Shown: positions 247 through 20,273 of the stretch, piece by piece | Numbering within the stretch: position 1 is the first letter of the stretch | Layout of the letters: each line of letters opens with the position of its first letter | DNA from: a virus | DNA length: 20,273 bases | Reading direction: 5' to 3' (one strand) | IMG/VR virus record: IMGVR_UViG_3300033074_002003 | Notes under the pieces: generated by a model | Told to the model about the DNA's origin: nothing | The model's input: only the letters and a program-made list of their open reading frames with translations | Database searches by the model: none | Translations under genes and position numbers: made by a program

Positions 247-318
247 GCACTGTTAGTGAAATGGGCATCACGTTTCTCTCTGAAAGAAAAATTGAAGGTT
301 CGAATCCTTCACAGTGTA
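247..318 (+). tRNA. tRNA-Gln(CTG), 72 nt, AT-rich
   Basis: Acceptor GCACTGT/ACAGTGT with one G-U pair. D-stem GTGA/TCAC. Anticodon stem TTTCT/AGAAA with loop CTCTGAA, giving CTG. T-arm GAAGG-TTCGAAT-CCTTC. The N-terminal extension of the track ORF 256..1080 overlaps this tRNA. Confidence 0.65.
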
Positions 319-360
319 CAATGTCTCGTTTCGAACCAATTATTCATCGTGACAACAATT

Positions 361-1080
361 TTGAAATGTGAATTGTGTGACGGTGATCACGAAGGGTTTT
401 ACGGGAGTGGAAGATTTTGCAGCAAAAAGTGTGCAAGGGCATTTTCAACACATAAATCGCGCAATGAAATCAACGAAAAAGTAAGTCAAACCCTTGTAGG
501 TAGAAGTCGTCGACTTCTACGTGCTGATGATAAACGCTTGCTGTTGAAAGTTGTCATTGATGAAAATCAGCTGCGCGAAGAAATCAAATTTGCTGTAAGC
601 TTTCGAAATCTAGCGCTAAGAATGAATTTGTCACTTAATCAAGTTCATAAAGTGAAAAAAACAGTTCAACGCTTGGGGCTTGATTATTCGCATTTTCGTT
701 TGGGACGAGCGCCTGAAAAAGTTCTTTGTCGCAGCAACAAACGAGGTGATTTGCGCGGAGCTCTCCTGAAATCAGAAAGAGAGTACAAGTGTGAAGAATG
801 TGGTCTCACGTCAAAATGGCAAGAAAAGAAGCTCACACTCCATGTCGATCACATTGACGGTGACAACGAGAATCACGAAGCGTCTAACTTAAGATTTCTT
901 TGTCCGAATTGTCATTCACAAACAGATACATTTTCGTGGAAGAACGTGCGACGCAAAAAGCTTCTTAAAAATGCGGGTTCGAGTCCCGCTCTCCCATCTG
1001 CCTGCTCGGCGCAGAGAGCTGTAGACACCTTGACAACAATGTGGTGTGACGTTCGAGAGAGATCGAAGACGGGGCTGTAA
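361..1080 (+). CDS. HNH homing endonuclease, probable TTG start; a paralog of the CDS at 9020..9622
   Basis: HNH motif HVDHIDGDNENHEASNLRFLCPNCH. The N-terminal KCELCDGDHEGFYGSGRFCSKKCARAFS matches MKCERCQVEHSGTYGSGRFCTVKCARSFS of the second copy, so the start is set at TTG 361, in frame with the listed ORF 256..1080. The gene is AT-rich in a GC-rich context. The C-terminal ~40 codons are GC-rich, read through a tRNA 3'-half remnant, and overlap tRNA-Ala, so the true C-terminus is uncertain. Confidence 0.6.
   Translation: MKCELCDGDHEGFYGSGRFCSKKCARAFSTHKSRNEINEKVSQTLVGRSRRLLRADDKRLLLKVVIDENQLREEIKFAVSFRNLALRMNLSLNQVHKVKKTVQRLGLDYSHFRLGRAPEKVLCRSNKRGDLRGALLKSEREYKCEECGLTSKWQEKKLTLHVDHIDGDNENHEASNLRFLCPNCHSQTDTFSWKNVRRKKLLKNAGSSPALPSACSAQRAVDTLTTMWCDVRERSKTGL
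937..997 (+). pseudogene. tRNA 3'-half remnant embedded in the 3' end of the HNH ORF (T-arm GCGGG-TTCGAGT-CCCGC plus acceptor strand)
   Basis: Perfect T-arm at 973-989 followed by TCTCCCA. The only upstream acceptor partner, TGGAAGA, is about 60 nt away, which is too short for a full tRNA, and no D or anticodon arm can be formed. Confidence 0.4.
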
Positions 1081-3141: not shown

Positions 3142-3224
3142 CGAGATGACGTGAGCGTGAGTAGCTCGTTGCAGTTGACGGGCTAGCTCACGTCCGTATG
3201 AAGCAGGATAGAGAGGGTCGAGAC

Positions 3225-3536
3225 ATGGCACAGGTTCTTCACGTCACTGACGATGACATCGCGGACATTCGCCGGACGAGCAGGTCGCTGATCAAGTTCG
3301 GCGCGACGTGGTGCGGGCCCTGCAAGCTGATGGATCCGAAGTTCGAGGAGGTCGCGCTCGAGTGCACCTCACCCGCGAAGTTCTTCTCTGTCGACGTGGA
3401 CGAGTGCCCACAGCTCTCGAAGGTTTTCGGTATCAGGGGCGTCCCGACGATTGTGGTCGTCGAGGGAAATGACGAGGTCGCCCGCCTCGTGGGAAATGTC
3501 TCGAAGGAGAAGATCGTGGCGCTGTGCCGCGAGTGA
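3225..3536 (+). CDS. trx: thioredoxin
   Basis: Canonical WCGPC active site (FGATWCGPCKLMDP) and a thioredoxin-like length. Start set at the second ATG, 3225, after GAGAGGGTCGAGAC. The listed ORF starts at 3198. Confidence 0.7.
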   Translation: MAQVLHVTDDDIADIRRTSRSLIKFGATWCGPCKLMDPKFEEVALECTSPAKFFSVDVDECPQLSKVFGIRGVPTIVVVEGNDEVARLVGNVSKEKIVALCRE

Positions 3537-4394: not shown

Positions 4395-5048
4395 ATGGAC
4401 AACACGAAACGCTACATCTACTTCATTGTCAATCGCATAAACTCTAAACGATACGTTGGACAAACACGTGATTATGTAAAAAGATCTAAGCAACATTTTT
4501 CTGAGGGCAAGAAGGGTAGAAAACGACATCCACTCTACGATTCCATGTTTTCACACGGGATCGAAAATTTCGAATTTGTTGTGATACAAGAGTGTTGCGA
4601 AAATGACGTTGATGAGTGTGAGATAGCGTGGATTAAAGCATTGTGCACTCGTGATAGAAGATTTGGATACAATCTTACGCCGGGTGGTAGTGCAATGTCG
4701 AGTTGTGTCTATGAGAAAATTTCAAAATCAATGTCTGGTAGACATTTCACACCCGAACACAAGGCAAAAATAGCTCAAGCGTTGAGAGGACAAAAGAGAC
4801 CTCCTTTGAAAGTTGAGCACGTTGAAAAGATAAGAAAATTCAACTTAGAGTCGCCGCCCTTTGCGGGTAAAACTCATACTGTTGAAACGCGTGAGAAAAT
4901 ACGTTGCGCAAATTCCAAATTGACGCGTGAAATCGTGAAAGTGATTCGCGAAGAATTCAATAATGGAACATCTCGTAAAGAGCTTGCACAAAAATATCAG
5001 GTTTCGTATAGTGCAATCAAGAATATCGTTGCAGGTAGACGCTGGTGA
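4395..5048 (+). CDS. GIY-YIG homing endonuclease (I-TevI-like, with NUMOD-type repeats)
   Basis: N-terminal RYIYFIVNRINSKRYVGQT with the GIY-YIG signature, Arg (CTRDRRFGYN) and Glu. C-terminal repeated SGRHFTPEHKAKIAQA and GKTHTVETREKIR NUMOD3-like motifs and an HTH-like tail. AT-rich island directly after the tRNA array. Confidence 0.75.
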   Translation: MDNTKRYIYFIVNRINSKRYVGQTRDYVKRSKQHFSEGKKGRKRHPLYDSMFSHGIENFEFVVIQECCENDVDECEIAWIKALCTRDRRFGYNLTPGGSAMSSCVYEKISKSMSGRHFTPEHKAKIAQALRGQKRPPLKVEHVEKIRKFNLESPPFAGKTHTVETREKIRCANSKLTREIVKVIREEFNNGTSRKELAQKYQVSYSAIKNIVAGRRW

Positions 5049-7393: not shown

Positions 7394-8272
7394 ATGCTTA
7401 GAACGTGTGATTATTGTGACTTGACTGATGACTTTAATAGCGTTCAATCTTGGGCAGCACACCGTTCGAATTGTATAAAAAATCCCAATCGAACAGCGAA
7501 GCTGGCGAGAATGAGTGAATCGGCAGCCAAAGTTTCACGTAAAATCCTTGCTTTGACGTGTAGTTGTGGTTCGCTATTTTCCATAGAAGTCACAGACGCT
7601 GAAATTACGCGTGGTGCACATAGACACTTCTGTTCGCGGCAATGTGCAAATCGTCGTCAGCATTCGTCTGAAACCAAACAGAAAATTTCGCAAAGTGTTT
7701 CCAGATTTTTTCCCGAATCTATTTCTGTCGAAGTTGAATGTGCCGAGTGCAAGCGTAAATTCGTTGGTAAAACAGGAAGAACGTGTTGTTCACAACAGTG
7801 CGCTCGCGTAATCAATAATCGAAAAAGAATGATTGCAGCACAGTTGCCAGAAACTAGAGCAAAGATCGCAGCGAAGACTTTAGAGGCTTATGCTAACGGT
7901 CGCGAACAGTGTGGTGGGCGAACGAAATGGTTTGATGTTTACACGCTTCGATACGGCAAAATTCGTGTGCAAGGGACGTATGAAGTTCGAGCGTGTCAAA
8001 TTCTTGACAAGATGCTTGCTTCTGGAGAATTGATCGCGTGGGAATATACACGAGCTAGATTTCCTTATGTAGACACGTCTGGCAAACAACGTATGTACAG
8101 ACCGGATTTCAAGCTTGTTTATCCTACACACGAAGAATTTGTTGAAACGAAGGGATTTTCAACACCAAATGACGAACGCAAATGGGAAGCTCTTCGTTTG
8201 TTGGGTCATCATTTGTCAGTGTGGCGTGAAGCTGATCTCAAACAACGTGAATCTAAAGAGCATATGTCCTGA
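7394..8272 (+). CDS. putative free-standing nuclease with a PD-(D/E)xK / Vsr-like (DUF559-like) C-terminal domain and two N-terminal Cys-rich C..CAR modules
   Basis: The C-terminal YEVRACQILD..WEYTRARFPY..YRPDFKLVYPTHEEFVETKG matches the PD..(D/E)xK arrangement. HFCSRQCANRRQ and TCCSQQCARVINNRK resemble the GRFCSKKCARAFS module of the two HNH genes. AT-rich island between tRNA-His and downstream genes. Confidence 0.5.
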   Translation: MLRTCDYCDLTDDFNSVQSWAAHRSNCIKNPNRTAKLARMSESAAKVSRKILALTCSCGSLFSIEVTDAEITRGAHRHFCSRQCANRRQHSSETKQKISQSVSRFFPESISVEVECAECKRKFVGKTGRTCCSQQCARVINNRKRMIAAQLPETRAKIAAKTLEAYANGREQCGGRTKWFDVYTLRYGKIRVQGTYEVRACQILDKMLASGELIAWEYTRARFPYVDTSGKQRMYRPDFKLVYPTHEEFVETKGFSTPNDERKWEALRLLGHHLSVWREADLKQRESKEHMS

Positions 8273-9019: not shown

Positions 9020-9622
9020 ATGAAATGTGAACGCTGTCAAGTTGAACACAGTGGGACGTATGGTTCGGGAAGATTTTGCACAGTCAAGTGTGCGAGATCT
9101 TTTTCAACAGCGTCTACTTCTGAAAAACGTTCAGAGATCAACAAACGAGTATCAGCGACACTAACGCAACCGCCAAAAGTAGCGACCTGTTGCATGTGTA
9201 ACACGCGGTATGAAACGCGACATCAGCGTTCTACATGTTGTAGTAAAGAGTGTCGAAAAGCTCGTAAAGCTCAAGTACAACACAACGTAACTAGAGAACA
9301 AAGAATCGAATTGGGCATCAAGAGTTCCTTTGGCAAATATGTTCGAAATCCGACAAGTTTGTATGATTTGAGCAACCGAACAATCAGTAAGATTCTTACA
9401 AGACTCGGAATCGGGTGTTCTTTGTGTGGTTGGTCTGCTGGAAAGTGTGACATTCATCACATTCGTGGTCGGAAAATTGAAGAAGCAGACAGACACGAAA
9501 ATTTGGCCTACGTGTGTCCAAATTGTCACAGGCTGATTCACAACAAGAAAATCAAGATTGACAGTCTTGTATCACTTCAAGATCAGATTGGTGATCGCTG
9601 GAAAGAGCTCTATTACGGTTAA
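9020..9622 (+). CDS. HNH homing endonuclease, a paralog of 361..1080
   Basis: N-terminal MKCERCQVEHSGTYGSGRFCTVKCARSFS. HNH motif CDIHHIRGRKIEEADRHENLAYVCPNCHRLIHN. AT-rich. Confidence 0.75.
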   Translation: MKCERCQVEHSGTYGSGRFCTVKCARSFSTASTSEKRSEINKRVSATLTQPPKVATCCMCNTRYETRHQRSTCCSKECRKARKAQVQHNVTREQRIELGIKSSFGKYVRNPTSLYDLSNRTISKILTRLGIGCSLCGWSAGKCDIHHIRGRKIEEADRHENLAYVCPNCHRLIHNKKIKIDSLVSLQDQIGDRWKELYYG

Positions 9623-12283: not shown

Positions 12284-12600
12284 AGAAGAGGCAGCAGCAG
12301 TCGGGTCGTGGTCAGAGCAACGTGATCGAGTTCGAGCGTGTGGATGTCAATGACATCTGTTACGCCTCCGACGACGAGCTCTACCAGCTCTCGCACGAAC
12401 TTACTTCTGCCCGCGAGCGCGGGCGTGACCTCGATACCCGCGATGTGGAGATCGAGATCTGCTACGTGCAGCGCGAGAAGAAGATTCGCGCGGCTCGCAG
12501 GGAGGCTCACGAGCTGTACGTGCAGAACCTGCAGAACGAGAACGCCGCGCTGGGAAATGCGATGGCCCTCTCGCTCTCGCCCACCGAGGTGGCGAACTGA
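12280..12600 (+). CDS. hypothetical protein (106 aa)
   Basis: ATGA overlap with the upstream stop. High GC3. Coiled-coil-like. Confidence 0.5.
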   Translation: MKKRQQQSGRGQSNVIEFERVDVNDICYASDDELYQLSHELTSARERGRDLDTRDVEIEICYVQREKKIRAARREAHELYVQNLQNENAALGNAMALSLSPTEVAN

Positions 12601-13466
12601 TGACACACGTCAGGTCTTCGAAAAAGGGAGGACGCGGAAGGGTCGGAAAGAGCTCACTTCAGTGGGAGCAGGCAAAGAGGAAGTCGATTTCTTCGCTGGA
12701 GTGTGACACAGTGTCCTGGATGATGTCCAAGGCGGGCAAGATCCCGCTCCTCACTCACGACGAGAGCACCGAGCTTTTCAAGAAGCTCGAGGCGGGCGAC
12801 ACGCGCGTCCGCGAGAAGATCGTGAGCTCCAACCTGAAGCTCGTGATCTCCATCGCGAAGAAGTACAAGAAGCACACCGGCGTCGACTTCGAGGACCTCC
12901 TGCAGGAGGGCAACATCGGCCTCATGAAGGCGGTCGAGAAGTTCGATCACCGCCGCGGCTTCAGGTTCTCCACCTACGCGACGTGGTGGATCCGGCAGGC
13001 AGTCGGTCAGTTCGTCGCGAAGACGAGCCGGACGATCAGGCTTCCCGCACACGCGATCGGCGTCTCGCGCAAGATCGAGGACGTGAAGCGCGAGTACAGG
13101 GAGAAGTTCGGTGAGGAGCCCACCGAGGCGGACCTCTCTGAGATGATGGACGTCTCCGAGAGCATCATCAAGGCCGCTTCTCGAGGTGCCAGGCGGACGA
13201 TCTCGCTGTCCTCGCCCATCGATCGAGACTCTGACGGCGGAGACACCCTCGCGGACACGATCCCCGACACCTCTGCGGGTAGTAACCCGTTCGAGGCCTT
13301 CCTCGAGAAGGAGTCGTACCAGATCGTGAAGGAGTCGTTCGCGAAGCTCACTCCGAAAGAGGAACAGATCATCAGGCTCAGGTTCGGAATCTCTGATTCT
13401 ACGCCCGAGATGGAGATCAGCGAAGCCGAGGAGGAGGAGATCGCGCGGGCAGGAGGAGCACAGTGA
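12600..13466 (+). CDS. sigma-70 family RNA polymerase sigma factor (regions 2, 3 and 4.1 present; region 4.2 HTH absent)
   Basis: NLKLVISIAKKYKKHTGVDFEDLLQEGNIGLMKAVEKFDHRRGFRFSTYATWWIRQAV...RTIRLP is a near-consensus sigma-70 region 2.1-2.4. LTPKEEQIIRLRFGI is region 4.1. The ORF ends 24 aa later without the recognition HTH. TGATG overlap with the upstream gene. Confidence 0.8.
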   Translation: MTHVRSSKKGGRGRVGKSSLQWEQAKRKSISSLECDTVSWMMSKAGKIPLLTHDESTELFKKLEAGDTRVREKIVSSNLKLVISIAKKYKKHTGVDFEDLLQEGNIGLMKAVEKFDHRRGFRFSTYATWWIRQAVGQFVAKTSRTIRLPAHAIGVSRKIEDVKREYREKFGEEPTEADLSEMMDVSESIIKAASRGARRTISLSSPIDRDSDGGDTLADTIPDTSAGSNPFEAFLEKESYQIVKESFAKLTPKEEQIIRLRFGISDSTPEMEISEAEEEEIARAGGAQ

Positions 13467-14594: not shown

Positions 14595-15134
14595 ATGAGA
14601 TGCAAGTCTGATTTTCTCGGTCGCCTCTGTGCATACGAACCCGACGCGCTCGTACGATTCGGCGTCGGGAGGCGCGTCGGTTCCGGTCGAAGCGGCACTG
14701 TGTATGAGTCCGCCCGTGGGTGTGTCATCAAGGTGGCGTCAGCGGGAATCGAATTTTGGGACGAGATCGACGGGATCCTCTCGTACCTCAAGGACGTCAA
14801 GAACCCATCGGTGATGGACGTGAAGGAGTACCACTTCATCGGATCTGACGCGTCTGACGTGCTCTACTGCCTCATCTCGGAGCGGCTTCACCCGATCGAC
14901 AATGACGACGAGGGCGAATTTGCCTGTGCTGTTGTCGACGACGTGTGGAACCCAGAGAACGTGCCAGACGAGACTCGGGCCGACCCGCGCTGGCACTCGC
15001 GCCCTTTCGAGGAGCTCAGGAAAAATCTCAGGGCGCTCCCATATGTCCACAAGGACATTCACTGGGGGAATATCATGAAGGACTGTTTCGGAAACTACAA
15101 GCTCATCGATGTGGAGGCTTTCAATGTCACGTGA
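14595..15134 (+). CDS. minimal Hanks-type (eukaryotic-like) protein kinase-like protein, about 180 aa, lacking the activation segment/C-lobe
   Basis: Gly-rich loop GVGRRVGSGRSGTVYE. VIKV, the beta3 Lys. HKDIHWGNIM (an HRDxxxxN-like catalytic loop). KLIDVE (DFG-like). Start set at ATG 14595. The track ORF starts at 14490 inside tRNA-Cys. Confidence 0.55.
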   Translation: MRCKSDFLGRLCAYEPDALVRFGVGRRVGSGRSGTVYESARGCVIKVASAGIEFWDEIDGILSYLKDVKNPSVMDVKEYHFIGSDASDVLYCLISERLHPIDNDDEGEFACAVVDDVWNPENVPDETRADPRWHSRPFEELRKNLRALPYVHKDIHWGNIMKDCFGNYKLIDVEAFNVT

Positions 15135-16452
15135 TGTCATCCGCGCATTTGCGACGCTTCTTGCGCTCGAGGGCGCACAGGGATCGAACGCGAAGAAGGC
15201 GCTGCTCGAGGCAGAGTTCGACAACGAGGCCCTTCGCGACCTCGTATTTGCCGCGTACGGCGGCGATGTGTACGGGTCGTATTCGACGCTGAAGTTCGAC
15301 GACGAAGAAGGGCCCGCACCGTCGCCAGAGCGCTTCGATGACTTCTTCGCGATGCTGAAGCGCCTCGCTCGCCGTGAGGTGACGGGCGACGCAGCCGTTG
15401 CAGAGATCGACGCGTTCATCGGCGGCTGCAACGTCACCGAGAAGAAGTGGTACAGGCGTGTGATCGACCACGACCTGAAGGTCGGTTGCAACAAGAGGAC
15501 GTTCTCGAAGGTCTGGGACTTCAAGTCGCTCGCGCTCGGCGGCGACGTGAAGGACATAGCGGACGTCACCTTCCCGGGCGTCATGCTGTGTGAACCGAAG
15601 GAGAAGTACGTCGCGAAGTTCACAGGCGATCTCCTCGTCGAACCGAAGCTCGATGGCCTGCGCCTCGTCTTCGTGTGGGAGGGCCGTGACAAGTGGTCTT
15701 TCTTCTCGCGATCGGGGAAGAATGACAGGTACAACGACAACCTGAAGCACATTGCGGCGAACCTCGTGGGCGCGATGCACGTCTGTGGCTGGCGCAAGGG
15801 AATCATCGACGGCGAGGTGATGGGTGAGACGTGGAACAGCACGCTCGCCGTGAAGCGCAAGGAGCTCACCGCACAGGACCTCGAGGAGATCGCCCGCTGC
15901 AAGTTCCACGCGTTCGATCACCTCACTGGCCCGGACGACGTGCGACCGCAGCACAAGAGACGGGCGACGCTCGCGGGGATCTGCGGGCACATCGAGTCTA
16001 ACTACGCGGGTTCGAAGGTGACGCTCGTGCCGCAGACGCGGGTGAAGTCGCTCGAAGAGGCCCGGGCGCTCTTCAACACGTTCCTCACACAGGGGTACGA
16101 GGGCGCGATCGTGAAGGACTCGGACGCTGTCTACAAGTTCGACAACAAGCGCTCGAAGCTCTGGATCAAGATCAAGCCCGTCGACACACAGGACGTTCGC
16201 GTCACCGGATTCTATCCCGGGAAGGAGCGCACGAAGTACGAGGGCACTCTCGGGGGCTTCAACGTGATCGACGCGGGCGGGCAGGAGTTCAATGTCGGCG
16301 GCGGGTTCACCGACGCACAGCGGAACGCCTTCTGGGAGGGCCGCGAGGGGTACGTGGGCAAGTACTGTGAGATCGAGTTCCAACCCGATCCCGCACAGGT
16401 CGCAAAGGGAAGGTTTCCGGTATTCATTCGCTGGCGGGAGGACTTGGAGTGA
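15124..16452 (+). CDS. lig: ATP-dependent DNA ligase
   Basis: Nucleotidyltransferase motifs: I EPKLDGLRL (KxDGxR), III IIDGEVM, IV EGAIVKD, V LWIKIKP. C-terminal OB-like GKYCEIEFQ...RFPVFIRWREDLE. GGAGG 6 nt upstream of ATG 15124. Overlaps the kinase stop. Confidence 0.8.
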   Translation: MSRDVIRAFATLLALEGAQGSNAKKALLEAEFDNEALRDLVFAAYGGDVYGSYSTLKFDDEEGPAPSPERFDDFFAMLKRLARREVTGDAAVAEIDAFIGGCNVTEKKWYRRVIDHDLKVGCNKRTFSKVWDFKSLALGGDVKDIADVTFPGVMLCEPKEKYVAKFTGDLLVEPKLDGLRLVFVWEGRDKWSFFSRSGKNDRYNDNLKHIAANLVGAMHVCGWRKGIIDGEVMGETWNSTLAVKRKELTAQDLEEIARCKFHAFDHLTGPDDVRPQHKRRATLAGICGHIESNYAGSKVTLVPQTRVKSLEEARALFNTFLTQGYEGAIVKDSDAVYKFDNKRSKLWIKIKPVDTQDVRVTGFYPGKERTKYEGTLGGFNVIDAGGQEFNVGGGFTDAQRNAFWEGREGYVGKYCEIEFQPDPAQVAKGRFPVFIRWREDLE

Positions 16453-17375: not shown

Positions 17376-18092
17376 ATGAGCGAAGAGAAGAGAGTCGACC
17401 TCTACAAGGCCACCGAAGAGCAACTGCAATTCGCGGCGACGCGTCCCACTGTGTGGGAGGAGAGGTGGGCCAAAGGCGACGGCTGCGTGGGCATCCCGTT
17501 GCAGGAATGGTTCAACGCTCGCCTCGACGCCGCTCGCACGAGGGGTGGCAGGGAAGCTGAGGACCGCGTTTCCGCGTGTCCTGGTCAACAGATCATGCGC
17601 ATCAGAGACAACATTGCGGGTGTCTTCGGCGCCACGAGCGCGGAGGTCATCTCGACGCACCGGTCGAAGTCTGTGGAGCTTCCCGTCTACAGGCTCACGA
17701 ACGATCGCCTGAAGGTGCGAGCGTACCTCCGTGACAACTTCTACAACATCAAGCTGTCGATCGATTCGGAGCGCCCGGTGAACGCAGACTTCACCGGTCT
17801 CTTCGAGACAGCGCACACGCACGAGCACGACGATTACTCGGGCGACGACCTCGCGTCGTGCTACTTCGAGGGCTTCCCTGAGTCGCTGGTGTTCGACTAC
17901 TATGGTCACACCGACGGTCGGAGATGGAGCGCCCAACTGCGTGGGTACGAGTCGCTGTGGACGGCACTCTTCCTCATCAGAAGGTCGTTCGGTGACATTC
18001 ACAGGATCGAATCGAATGGTGACGTCGATCACACGCGGGAAATGGACCGCGACACGGCCCTGAGGCTCATCAGAGAACGGAAAACGAAGTGA
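17376..18092 (+). CDS. hypothetical protein (238 aa)
   Basis: AAGGAG 8 nt upstream of the ATG. High GC3. Confidence 0.55.
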   Translation: MSEEKRVDLYKATEEQLQFAATRPTVWEERWAKGDGCVGIPLQEWFNARLDAARTRGGREAEDRVSACPGQQIMRIRDNIAGVFGATSAEVISTHRSKSVELPVYRLTNDRLKVRAYLRDNFYNIKLSIDSERPVNADFTGLFETAHTHEHDDYSGDDLASCYFEGFPESLVFDYYGHTDGRRWSAQLRGYESLWTALFLIRRSFGDIHRIESNGDVDHTREMDRDTALRLIRERKTK

Positions 18093-18418
18093 TGGACGCG
18101 GAATTTGTCATTCCTTTCACGACAACGAAACCAGTCGTCGGCGGTACGTACCACGGGAAGCAGTGGCGATGGGCGTTGTTCATCGCCACCTCCGCGTCGC
18201 GCTTCCCACTCGACATCCTGCTGACGAGAGAGGCATCAGACGACGGCGTCAAGTTCTACCCCATCTCATCGTACTTCGACTTCAACCTGAGACTGAAGAA
18301 CATGAAGTTTGGGCGGGACCACCTCTGGTACGATGGCCCACACGACTCGCTTCACCTCGGGCCCATCAACTTCGCGTGGTCTTGGTGGTCGTGTGAGAAG
18401 TGCGAAGAGGGGATCTGA
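18089..18418 (+). CDS. hypothetical protein (109 aa)
   Basis: ATGA overlap with the upstream stop. Trp-rich C-terminus with CEKCEE. Confidence 0.5.
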   Translation: MMDAEFVIPFTTTKPVVGGTYHGKQWRWALFIATSASRFPLDILLTREASDDGVKFYPISSYFDFNLRLKNMKFGRDHLWYDGPHDSLHLGPINFAWSWWSCEKCEEGI

Positions 18419-18419
18419 G

Positions 18420-18737
18420 ATGGCGAAGAAGATCGGTGTCGAGGCGCTCGCGCGCATTCTGTTCAGTACTGTCGAAGCGTGCTACGAGAAATGCGATCAC
18501 ACGTATCGCGTTGACATGCCACTCGAACTCGTTGGTCGCCTGCGCGGGAACGTCGAAATCCCAGATCGCGAAAAAGAATCAGAGTTCTACCACCTGGGAG
18601 ATCCACGCTTGAGGAACATGTATCGCGACGTCGCGCGATCGATCATCAGCGGGATCTCGTACAACGAGATCGTAGACGCGCGAGCCAGGGCTAAAGCGAA
18701 GTCAGCGAAGAGGAAGAAGAGCAAGAAGAAGGGCTAG
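18420..18737 (+). CDS. hypothetical protein with a Lys-rich C-terminal tail (105 aa)
   Basis: Start moved to ATG 18420, after GAGGGGATCTGAG. The upstream in-frame extension would overlap the previous gene. Confidence 0.45.
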   Translation: MAKKIGVEALARILFSTVEACYEKCDHTYRVDMPLELVGRLRGNVEIPDREKESEFYHLGDPRLRNMYRDVARSIISGISYNEIVDARARAKAKSAKRKKSKKKG

Positions 18738-18742
18738 GCACA

Positions 18743-19120
18743 ATGGAGCATCTCCCGCTCGTGCTCGTATGGAACCACGCCGAGAAGAACCCAGAGACGT
18801 CTGCGTCGCCCGCGAAGATCGTCGGTGAGTTCGCGAGCCACATGGCGCTCGCTGTGCACGTCGAGCTCATGGACAGAGAGGTGTGGTCCGGCCGCTCGCT
18901 CTACGTCGTGCTGGGACCCAGCACGCACCCGCGTCCCAGTGATTCGATTTGCAATATCGGTCGCTCGCGTCCCTCTTCGGGCGACTGGTGGGCCTCGCGC
19001 CCAGGATCACACGGGTGGTGCAGGTCGCTGCTCTACCAGTGGGCAAACCTTGGTGGCGACTGGGAACAAGAGTCTAAGCAGTTTGCCGCCGAAGAGCTGG
19101 AGAGGCGAGGTTGGCGATGA
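18743..19120 (+). CDS. hypothetical protein (125 aa)
   Basis: Open frame with high GC3. Directly follows the previous stop. Confidence 0.45.
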   Translation: MEHLPLVLVWNHAEKNPETSASPAKIVGEFASHMALAVHVELMDREVWSGRSLYVVLGPSTHPRPSDSICNIGRSRPSSGDWWASRPGSHGWCRSLLYQWANLGGDWEQESKQFAAEELERRGWR

Positions 19121-19428
19121 GCGAGAAGTTCGTGATCAAGTACAGTGACGGGCTCTACGAGCACGAATCGGGATTTCCGGTCACACTCGAGGGCGCGACA
19201 CGGTACGAAACAGCCGAAGCAGCGTGCGCGCAAGCCGCGAATCTCTGTTGGGACCCAGTCGTCATTCCTGAGCCGCCACCGACTGCAAACTTGTCTGATA
19301 TGCGAAGGGCTCTCGCTGCGATCGCCAGAGACATCGCAGAAGAGCCGACGGTCACGACCGGTGAGGTGGACGCTGCGTATGCCCTCGCTCGCGAGTGTGC
19401 GAGAGAAGAAGGGTTTGAGATTCCGTGA
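19117..19428 (+). CDS. hypothetical protein (103 aa)
   Basis: ATGA overlap (ATG 19117) with the upstream stop. The track ORF starts at TTG 19111. Confidence 0.45.
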   Translation: MSEKFVIKYSDGLYEHESGFPVTLEGATRYETAEAACAQAANLCWDPVVIPEPPPTANLSDMRRALAAIARDIAEEPTVTTGEVDAAYALARECAREEGFEIP

Positions 19429-19459
19429 ACTCTGTCATCCTGTGTGATAGAGTGACGGC

Positions 19460-19660
19460 ATGTCTTCAACGCACCTCGATGACGGTCTGTTCTGCTACCC
19501 ACCGACGATCGTGAAGAACAAGACGCGATGCAAGCACGGTGAGGGCACGTGCGCCCTGTGTGGAACTTGTGATGCCACAGACGAAGTCCACACCACAACA
19601 GACGGTGTGGGACCCGTTGCTGCGCTCACGACTCACAAGAAGCGCAAGCGTCGGAAGTAA
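19460..19660 (+). CDS. small Cys-rich protein with a basic tail (66 aa)
   Basis: CKHGEGTCALCGTC cluster. KKRKRRK C-terminus. Confidence 0.4.
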   Translation: MSSTHLDDGLFCYPPTIVKNKTRCKHGEGTCALCGTCDATDEVHTTTDGVGPVAALTTHKKRKRRK

Positions 19661-19669
19661 GGAGCAACA

Positions 19670-20273
19670 GTGTCTCTAGGCGTCGTCTGTCACTGGCTCG
19701 TCGAGCGATCCCGCCCGCGGTCTGCCCCCATCATGGTCAACGCGCTCGACGAGAAGAAGCTGATGCTCGGCGTCTACCGTGCGGGCGGTTACACTCGGCA
19801 GCGAATTGTCGACACATACGTCCACAACGCCGAGTCGCTCCTTGCGCTCCTGCGAGACCACGTTGTCCCGGCGGGCGTCCGGTGCTACAGAATCTCGTCG
19901 TCGCTCTTCCCACTCAGTGACCTCGTGGGCGACGCCATCTTTGACAAGCACCCGCGCGTTTGCAGCGCCCTCCAGAAAATCGGTCACCTCGCGCGCGAGC
20001 ACGGCCTGCGACTCACGATGCACCCGGGACAGTTCTGTGTCCTGTCATCCTCGCGCGAAGATGTCGTCCGGAATGCCGTCGCAGAGATCGAGCGTCACTC
20101 GTGGGTCTTCGATGCGATGGGCATGCCCGAGTCTCCGTACGCGGCCATCAACGTCCACGGCGGCGCACGAGACAGCGCGGACGCGCTCTGTCGCGGCATC
20201 GAGTTGCTGTCCAGTGCAGCGCGGTCACGCCTCACACTCGAAAATTGCGAGAGCGCGTACGGGATCGACGAGC
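19670..20273 (+). CDS. uvdE: UV-damage endonuclease (UvdE)-like TIM-barrel protein, 3'-truncated by the window end; not in the supplied ORF track
   Basis: Hand translation of the open frame from GTG 19670, with AAGGAG 5 nt upstream, or from ATG 19733. It gives ...YRISSSLFPL...RLTMHPGQFCVLSSSREDV...INVHGGA...LTLENCE. These match the UvdE blocks RFSSRLIPL, LSLHPDHFVVLNSP, HTGGA and FENDD. No stop before the window end. Confidence 0.5.
   Translation, partial: MSLGVVCHWLVERSRPRSAPIMVNALDEKKLMLGVYRAGGYTRQRIVDTYVHNAESLLALLRDHVVPAGVRCYRISSSLFPLSDLVGDAIFDKHPRVCSALQKIGHLAREHGLRLTMHPGQFCVLSSSREDVVRNAVAEIERHSWVFDAMGMPESPYAAINVHGGARDSADALCRGIELLSSAARSRLTLENCESAYGIDE

Follow-up and report, generated by a model that had tools for sequence, protein, structure and literature searches.

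A UvdE-family gene, probably for a functional UV-damage endonuclease, cut by the end of an uncultured phage sequence

The reading frame at the end of the window

The IMG/VR virus record IMGVR_UViG_3300033074_002003, a stretch of 20,273 nucleotides that is called the window here at its full length, is phage DNA. From base 19670 to its last base it very probably carries the first two-thirds of a functional phage gene that encodes a 312-amino acid (aa) ultraviolet (UV)-damage endonuclease of the UvdE/UvsE family. Read from the sequence, a Shine-Dalgarno (SD) element AAGGAG (19659-19664) is followed by the 5-nt spacer CAACA and a GTG codon at 19670, and the plus-strand frame that begins there contains 201 codons without a stop, up to base 20273, where the window ends. 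An in-frame TAA (19658-19660), which is the stop codon of an upstream 66-aa open reading frame (ORF), lies just before it, and GTG 19670 is therefore the earliest start possible in the UvdE frame. The product contains the blocks YRISSSLFPL, LTMHPGQFCVLSS, NVHGGA and LENCE. In the mechanical ORF list, an antisense ORF (19676-20023) stands alone in this region, and the UvdE ORF is missing from it because the list leaves out ORFs that extend past the end of the source. A first-pass annotation, made from the letters and the ORF list, had described exactly this arrangement: a GTG start with AAGGAG 5 nt upstream, a frame open to the window end, four UvdE signature blocks, and an ORF track holding the antisense ORF only. 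All of these descriptions agree with the sequence and the list. Its central proposal, an unlisted and window-truncated UvdE-like phage gene, is also in agreement with the profile matches, the 312-aa ORFs of other contigs, the predicted fold and the substitution pattern reported below.

The complete gene and its family

Near-identical contigs were collected from JGI, ENA and Logan metagenomes by exact-sequence look-ups of two complete neighbouring proteins. Exact look-ups of three other genes (1700-2353, 256-1080 and 3198-3536) returned nothing recorded, probably by reason of differing start calls. Ten independent contigs (L001-L010) span the whole UvdE gene with 0 mismatches over the shared 604 nt, and in each of them the frame reaches its stop after 312 codons. 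L001, among these, was compared with the window over 11,531 bases, of which 2 differ. The 312-codon frame is unbroken in every contig examined and, given the stop at its end in the near-identical contigs, the gene is therefore neither frameshifted nor a pseudogene. The first-pass annotation had named a stop or frameshift soon after the window end as the finding that would speak against its proposal; none is seen, and the ten contigs read on to 312 codons.

The 201-aa fragment encoded in the window matches the Pfam family UvdE (PF03851) with 116 bits (E = 2.4e-33), the curated gathering threshold of this family being 24 bits. It also matches two NCBIfam UvsE models (E = 5e-36 and 2e-24), phrog_8420 ('endonuclease') among the PHROGs (E = 7e-26) and the solved UVDE chains among PDB sequences (E = 1.6e-13). 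Judged by these scores, the resemblance to UvdE is far beyond chance. The full-length protein of 312 aa scores 147.2 bits against Pfam UvdE, covering profile positions 33-273 of 275, so the profile check against PF03851 proposed in the first-pass annotation gives a match for the fragment and a higher score for the whole protein. At full length the NCBIfam UvsE models are matched at E = 1e-45 and 4e-35, and the sequences of TthUVDE (from T. thermophilus) and SacUVDE (from S. acidocaldarius) at E ~1e-21. Pfam and NCBIfam scans of the full-length protein reported no AP_endonuc_2 match.

Strand, selection and start codon

The 89%-identical orthologue P0002, from locus L096, served for the comparison of substitution patterns. 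The ratio of non-synonymous to synonymous rates (dN/dS) is 0.17 for the plus frame and 0.95 for the antisense ORF in its own frame. Synonymous and non-synonymous codon differences number 56 and 33 in the plus frame, and 6 and 31 in the antisense frame. Of the 106 substitutions, 68 are at plus-frame third codon positions, and the GC content of these positions (GC3) is 0.77. These values show purifying selection on the UvdE gene, and a ratio of 0.95 beside one of 0.17 argues that the antisense ORF is a shadow of the GC-rich UvdE coding frame and not a gene.

An opposite reading would leave the plus frame unexpressed, either with the antisense ORF as the true gene or with the UvdE frame as a decaying pseudogene. 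The antisense ORF is indeed the sole entry of the mechanical ORF track in the UvdE region, and it is still open in the 89%-identical relative. However, this reading is at odds with the two dN/dS values, with the clustering of substitutions at the third codon position of the plus frame, and with the SD element and GTG that are kept in the near-identical contigs and in the orthologue; as a pseudogene, the frame would moreover hardly be unbroken over 312 codons in every contig. The antisense ORF was rejected as a true gene on the difference between 0.95 and 0.17, and a pseudogene on the intact frame together with the ratio of 0.17. With a probability close to nil, the reading is already effectively refuted.

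Public gene calls for the identical UvdE sequence are split between a 312-aa product starting at the GTG (L002 and L008) and a 291-aa product starting at an internal ATG at 19733, which is the commoner call (L001, L003-L007, L009 and L010). The first ten residues, xLGVxCHWL, are ~90% conserved among 120 homologues that cover the whole query, and L3, G4, C7 and W9 are conserved in at least 90% of homologues. For codons 1-21, dN is 0.047 and dS 0.41, and these codons are modelled as strands with a per-residue confidence (pLDDT) of 87-93. Both the SD element and the GTG are retained in the orthologue in L096. Because of this N-terminal conservation, the low dN, the modelled strands and the start signals kept in the orthologue, the GTG start is correct, and the 291-aa calls begin 21 codons late and lose the conserved first barrel strand. 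The ligase of the window is likewise called at two lengths in public gene tables, 447 or 442 aa.

Predicted fold and active site

A model of the protein was built with AlphaFold2 from a 31-sequence alignment with a mean identity of 49%, whose first row (P0001) is 99% identical to the window gene. The model has a pLDDT of 90.2 and a predicted TM score (pTM) of 0.89, and its strands alternate with helices. In a Foldseek search of the PDB, ranks 1-9 are all SacUVDE or TthUVDE structures (E 6e-20 to 4e-15; target-normalised TM score 0.77-0.83), and endonuclease IV is the next match after the UVDEs (E = 1e-7; TM 0.57-0.62). The product is thus predicted to be a TIM-barrel protein of the UVDE/endonuclease IV type.

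Eight residues, H118, H163, E191, D216, H219, H249, H268 and E293, are invariant in the 31-sequence alignment. They align with the TthUVDE/SacUVDE motifs MHPGQY, H-GG, LENDE, D-LHH, -H-, -H- and E-K-K as the equivalents of the ligands of the three-metal centre, which in TthUVDE are H101, H143, E175, D200, H203, H231, H244 and E269. Judged by the aligned motifs, the residues that hold the three-metal centre in the solved UVDEs are therefore kept. The Tth numbering was checked against Gln104/Tyr105 (PMC3553973) and the K229L mutant entry 3bzj. Gln104 and Tyr105 form a Gln/Tyr probing finger whose role in lesion handling has been described, the Tyr stacking on the flipped base (PMC3553973). In the window protein the finger Gln121 is invariant, and the following Phe122 is at least 90% conserved in the clade; other viral UvdEs that were examined have Phe here as well. 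Phe122 probably preserves the stacking that the aromatic Tyr provides.

Genomic context

The UvdE gene lies in a tightly packed co-directional block, rich in small ORFs, that also contains genes for a sigma factor, an ATP-dependent ligase, a thioredoxin-domain protein and homing endonucleases (Table 1), and this block consists of phage early or DNA-metabolism genes. Library scans detected no repair function in the genes immediately around UvdE. PHROG scans of ten genes downstream of UvdE, and of the large minus-strand gene in L096, gave no functional assignment. A megablast search of 50,697 phage records with window positions 18000-20273 returned no match; therefore, the window phage has no close cultured relative.

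Table 1. Coordinates of the features of the window
Feature	Position	Strand	Basis or remark
HNH gene	256-1080	+	library match; homing-endonuclease type
Thioredoxin-domain protein	3198-3536	+	PHROG 22
GIY-YIG gene	4395-5048	+	library match; homing-endonuclease type
Endonuclease gene	7394-8272	+	library match; homing-endonuclease type
HNH gene	9020-9622	+	library match; homing-endonuclease type
Sigma-70-family factor	12600-13466	+	Pfam Sigma70_r2, r3; PHROG 351, E = 9e-62
ATP-dependent DNA ligase	15109-16452	+	Pfam DNA_ligase_A_M + OB_2; PHROG 114, E = 1e-84
Histone-deacetylase-family protein, 290 aa	16449-17321	+	Pfam PF00850, E 6e-34
66-aa ORF, Cys-rich, basic tail	19460-19660	+	same frame as UvdE; stop overlaps UvdE SD
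Shine-Dalgarno AAGGAG	19659-19664	+	5 nt before start; overlaps upstream TAA; identical in all near-identical contigs and L096
UvdE-family gene, first 201 of 312 codons, GTG start	19670-20273	+	~335 nt more beyond window; 939 nt including stop
Codons 1-21, GTG start to internal ATG 19733	19670-19732	+	first barrel strand xLGVxCHWL
Antisense 115-aa ORF	19676-20023	-	shadow ORF, not a gene; own-frame dN/dS 0.95
Metal-ligand codon His118 (predicted)	20021-20023	+	conservation, motif alignment
Probing finger Gln121-Phe122 (predicted)	20030-20035	+	conservation, motif alignment
Metal-ligand codon His163 (predicted)	20156-20158	+	conservation, motif alignment
Metal-ligand codon Glu191 (predicted)	20240-20242	+	conservation, motif alignment

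The 66-aa ORF directly upstream of UvdE encodes a Cys-rich product (CKHGEGTCALCGTC) with the basic tail KKRKRRK, and its TAA overlaps the UvdE SD element. Both the near-identical contigs and L096 retain it, and gene callers list it in most of the former; the family libraries Pfam and PHROG gave no match. The close layout of this ORF and UvdE suggests co-transcription and possibly coupled translation. A scan for promoters and terminators around the UvdE gene found nothing above chance, including between the two ORFs.

The first-pass annotation had placed UvdE next to a DNA ligase, as a DNA-repair pair. A ligase does exist in the same co-directional block; adjacency and a dedicated pair are overstated, as the two genes are 3.2 kb apart with seven ORFs between them, including the histone-deacetylase-family gene. 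The linkage was followed in 84 loci encoding UvdE relatives by tblastn with the ligase and sigma factor of the window. In 13 of them (L014, L016-L018, L021-L027, L062 and L066), all of which are close relatives (~42-53% UvdE identity), UvdE has a related ligase within 10 kb; in the other 71, which are more distant, tblastn found no related ligase within reach. The order in the 13 loci is UvdE, sigma factor, ligase within ~4 kb, the ligase being 2.5-3.5 kb from UvdE, whereas in the window the sigma factor and ligase come first and UvdE follows much further on. The sigma factors of these loci are ~39-44% identical to that of the window and the ligases ~28-30%.

A dedicated repair module of two co-evolving genes, UvdE and the ATP-dependent ligase, is very improbable. 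Such a module would be consistent with their position within one co-directional block, with the short distance between them, across a sigma-factor gene, in the 13 closest-relative loci, and with the eventual need of a UvdE nick for sealing by a ligase. It conflicts with the seven ORFs and 3.2 kb of the window, with the gene order that differs between the window phage and its relatives, and with the 71 of 84 loci that have no related ligase within reach. Moreover, the ATP-dependent ligases of phages serve replication in general. More than 1,300 phage records have one, and most of these are without UvdE (74 records). The linkage looks like inherited gene order inside an early or DNA-metabolism block.

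Of the four homing-endonuclease-type genes of the window, three are HNH-type and one is GIY-YIG, and each lies in a low-GC island: the GC fraction of the 1-kb bins in which the four genes fall is 0.45-0.48, against 0.53-0.62 elsewhere. The 200-aa HNH gene is unlisted in the gene tables of some otherwise near-identical contigs, a patchy listing that would suggest recent mobile insertions. Directly 3' of the ligase, the histone-deacetylase-family gene is kept in all near-identical contigs and in L096. Genes of this family are rare in phages (6 of 50,697 phage records by tblastn); the matches include Rhodococcus phage E3 gp202 and four uncultured phage records of 595-735 kb.

Distribution of viral UvdE

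Proteins matching the window UvdE at E <= 1e-5 number 543, the best 120 of them at E <= 4e-82. At least 600 IMG/VR stretches match the motifs of its clade, and 599 were confirmed as relatives. The clade is separate from the UvdEs of cultured phages and mostly uncultured, with members 45-53% identical, and none of 50,697 deposited phage records holds a UvdE more than 36% identical to that of the window. Across 185,579 species genomes, a scan that used clade-specific motifs only found them in 4 contigs, all of which belong to metagenome-assembled genomes (MAGs). A cellular origin of the window UvdE was rejected on the phage context, the spread in IMG/VR and the near-absence from species genomes.

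Some of the loci give a view of the carriers. A 53%-identical UvdE shares its contig (L014) with a T4-type Gp23 capsid gene. The 324-kb contig ERZ4756920 NODE_27 (L012), possibly a jumbo phage, encodes a 48%-identical UvdE with a 5'-3' exonuclease 1.3 kb downstream; phage lysozyme, two NUDIX genes and Thg1 are also among its neighbours, as are an isocitrate-lyase/PEP-mutase-family gene, UDP-glucose pyrophosphorylase and a HhH-GPD glycosylase. In one of the four MAG contigs, JBBAUR010000009.1 of a Bdellovibrionota MAG (L098), neighbours of UvdE strongly match phrog_19072 (E 3e-88) and the phage GroEL phrog_5725 (E 2e-149); mis-binning of a viral contig, or a prophage, may explain it.

Viral UvdE as such is well documented. 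ORF111c of the T4-like Aeromonas phage Aeh1 was annotated as UvdE in 2006 (PMC1524935), and UvdE annotations are found in cultured Erwinia, Vibrio, Bacillus and Listeria phages and in many jumbo phages. The family is catalogued as PHROG 8420, and its expression at sea has been reported: UvdE of pelagiphages and giant viruses is expressed with a diel rhythm that peaks in the afternoon (bioRxiv 10.1101/2025.10.05.680483, 2025 preprint).

Proposed function

By analogy with the characterised UVDEs of S. pombe, B. subtilis, T. thermophilus and S. acidocaldarius, described in part in PMC3553973, the protein would bind distorted DNA in the infected cell and recognise cyclobutane pyrimidine dimers (CPDs), 6-4 photoproducts (6-4PPs) and possibly abasic sites. 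The Gln/aromatic finger would assist in flipping the damaged dipyrimidine, together with the two bases facing it, into pockets, and a nick would be placed, with Mn2+, immediately 5' of the lesion. This nick could then be processed by a 5'-3' exonuclease or flap nuclease together with a polymerase, and sealed by the phage or host ligase. The phage would in this way gain a light-independent, single-enzyme entry to UV repair of its genome, independent of host UvrABC.

Several points weigh against a UV-damage endonuclease of the known kind. The 3' third of the gene lies outside the window and is seen only in the near-identical contigs. At full length, the protein narrowly misses the cut-off of TIGR00629 (121.9 vs 124.45) and stays far below that of NF002640 (155.8 vs 456), both of which are NCBIfam equivalog models named 'UV DNA damage repair endonuclease UvsE'; within the UvdE family it therefore counts as divergent, and equal function is not to be assumed for it. 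In the active site, the equivalent of Tth His244 requires an alignment gap, phmmer and MAFFT placing Phe262 at this position; when viral UvdEs at a greater distance are used to bridge the alignment, R-x-H-(A/S)-D-Y, a motif of the family, falls on RRKH268SDY. The Tyr of the finger in the characterised enzymes is replaced by Phe122, and Tth Lys229 by Leu247, which is invariant in the clade. Lys229 of TthUVDE is carboxylated, and PDB entry names show K229L and K229R mutants. This position is occupied by Met in the active SacUVDE and by L, C or I in other viral UvdEs, and the lysine therefore does not define the UvdE family. Relative to the solved UVDEs, the window protein is also longer by ~15 residues behind the first strand, where query residue 37 aligns with residue 22 of native Tth, and lacks 5 residues after His163. 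With this insertion, deletion and set of substitutions, the specificity could differ from that of the characterised enzymes. Finally, the substrate and metal dependence ascribed to the clade would hold only as far as homology carries them.

The same clade-specific features, namely the Leu at Tth Lys229, the Phe finger, the N-terminal insertion and the deletion after His163, together with the scores below the equivalog cut-offs, would also suit a nuclease of the UvdE fold whose true substrate is abasic sites, mismatches, small loops or modified bases rather than UV photoproducts. Such an enzyme would serve general phage DNA repair or processing, or attack host DNA. In its favour, S. pombe Uve1 also cuts abasic (AP) sites and mismatches. 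SacUVDE has weak AP-site activity, and its residues 10-18 lie near the damage-binding pocket (PMC3553973). However, the finger Gln, the adjacent aromatic residue and all metal ligands are retained, the lysine is not universal, as the Met of active SacUVDE indicates, and Phe is able to stack on a flipped base like Tyr. Furthermore, viral UvdE transcripts are highest at maximal solar radiation in a marine time series (bioRxiv 10.1101/2025.10.05.680483). A substrate other than UV photoproducts is accordingly thought unlikely, and an endonuclease acting on UV damage is the preferred reading.

A more speculative thought, given a similarly low chance, concerns the clade as a whole. It forms a large UvdE subfamily that appears to be borne almost exclusively by viruses, marked by Leu in place of the carboxylated Lys, the Phe finger, the N-terminal insertion and a GSFxDRRKHSD motif, and it may have evolved a specificity for lesions or DNA modifications that differs from that of the cellular UVDEs. 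The insertion is modelled as a beta-hairpin (residues 10-24) and falls in a region that, in SacUVDE, is close to the damage pocket. Within one lineage of large T4-like phages the gene would belong to a conserved module of UvdE, sigma factor and ligase, which could be a damage-response unit under phage control.

For the annotation of the window, a real gene that was missed owing to the window cut takes the place of a spurious antisense ORF, and many public calls of this gene start 21 codons late. The window adds one more uncultured phage, found in many metagenomes, that would carry its own light-independent UV-repair nuclease, and a phage UvdE fits with selection by sunlight on free or replicating phage DNA. 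No new question is opened by this, because viral UvdE has already been annotated, included in the PHROGs and reported as expressed in the sea. Of mild interest is only the subfamily specific to viruses, which has conserved substitutions and an N-terminal insertion of its own.

Comparison with known systems

The closest structural counterparts are the solved UVDEs (TthUVDE, 2j6v; SacUVDE, 3tc3 and 4gle), with which the protein shares the predicted TIM-barrel fold (target-normalised TM ~0.8), a similar length of ~300 aa, and the motifs MHPGQ(Y/F), H-GG, LEN(D/C)E, D-xHH, two later His residues and a C-terminal E-x-K-x-K. However, their identity to the window protein is only 24-27%, the Lys229 and Tyr105 of Tth correspond to Leu247 and Phe122, and the solved enzymes are cell-encoded whereas the window gene is phage-encoded. 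The UvdE proteins of cultured phages (Aeh1 ORF111c; Erwinia phages pEa_SNUABM_5 and Yoloswag; Bacillus phage SP-15; Listeria phage LIS04; Vibrio phages) belong to the same family, PHROG 8420, and their carriers are tailed phages, mostly large myoviruses. Their identity to the window UvdE is only 30-36% (Erwinia, Vibrio, Dickeya, Aeromonas, Bacillus and Listeria phages).

T4 endonuclease V (DenV) has the same presumed role, the initiation of UV-dimer repair in phage DNA independently of host UvrABC, but its fold and chemistry are unrelated to those of UvdE. DenV is a small pyrimidine-dimer glycosylase/AP lyase that acts on CPDs only, whereas UvdE, a TIM-barrel phosphodiesterase that depends on metal, nicks 5' of both CPDs and 6-4PPs. 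Endonuclease IV (Nfo), an AP endonuclease, is also a TIM barrel with a three-metal centre. It is a much weaker match, and the window protein carries the GQ(Y/F) finger that is specific to the UVDEs.

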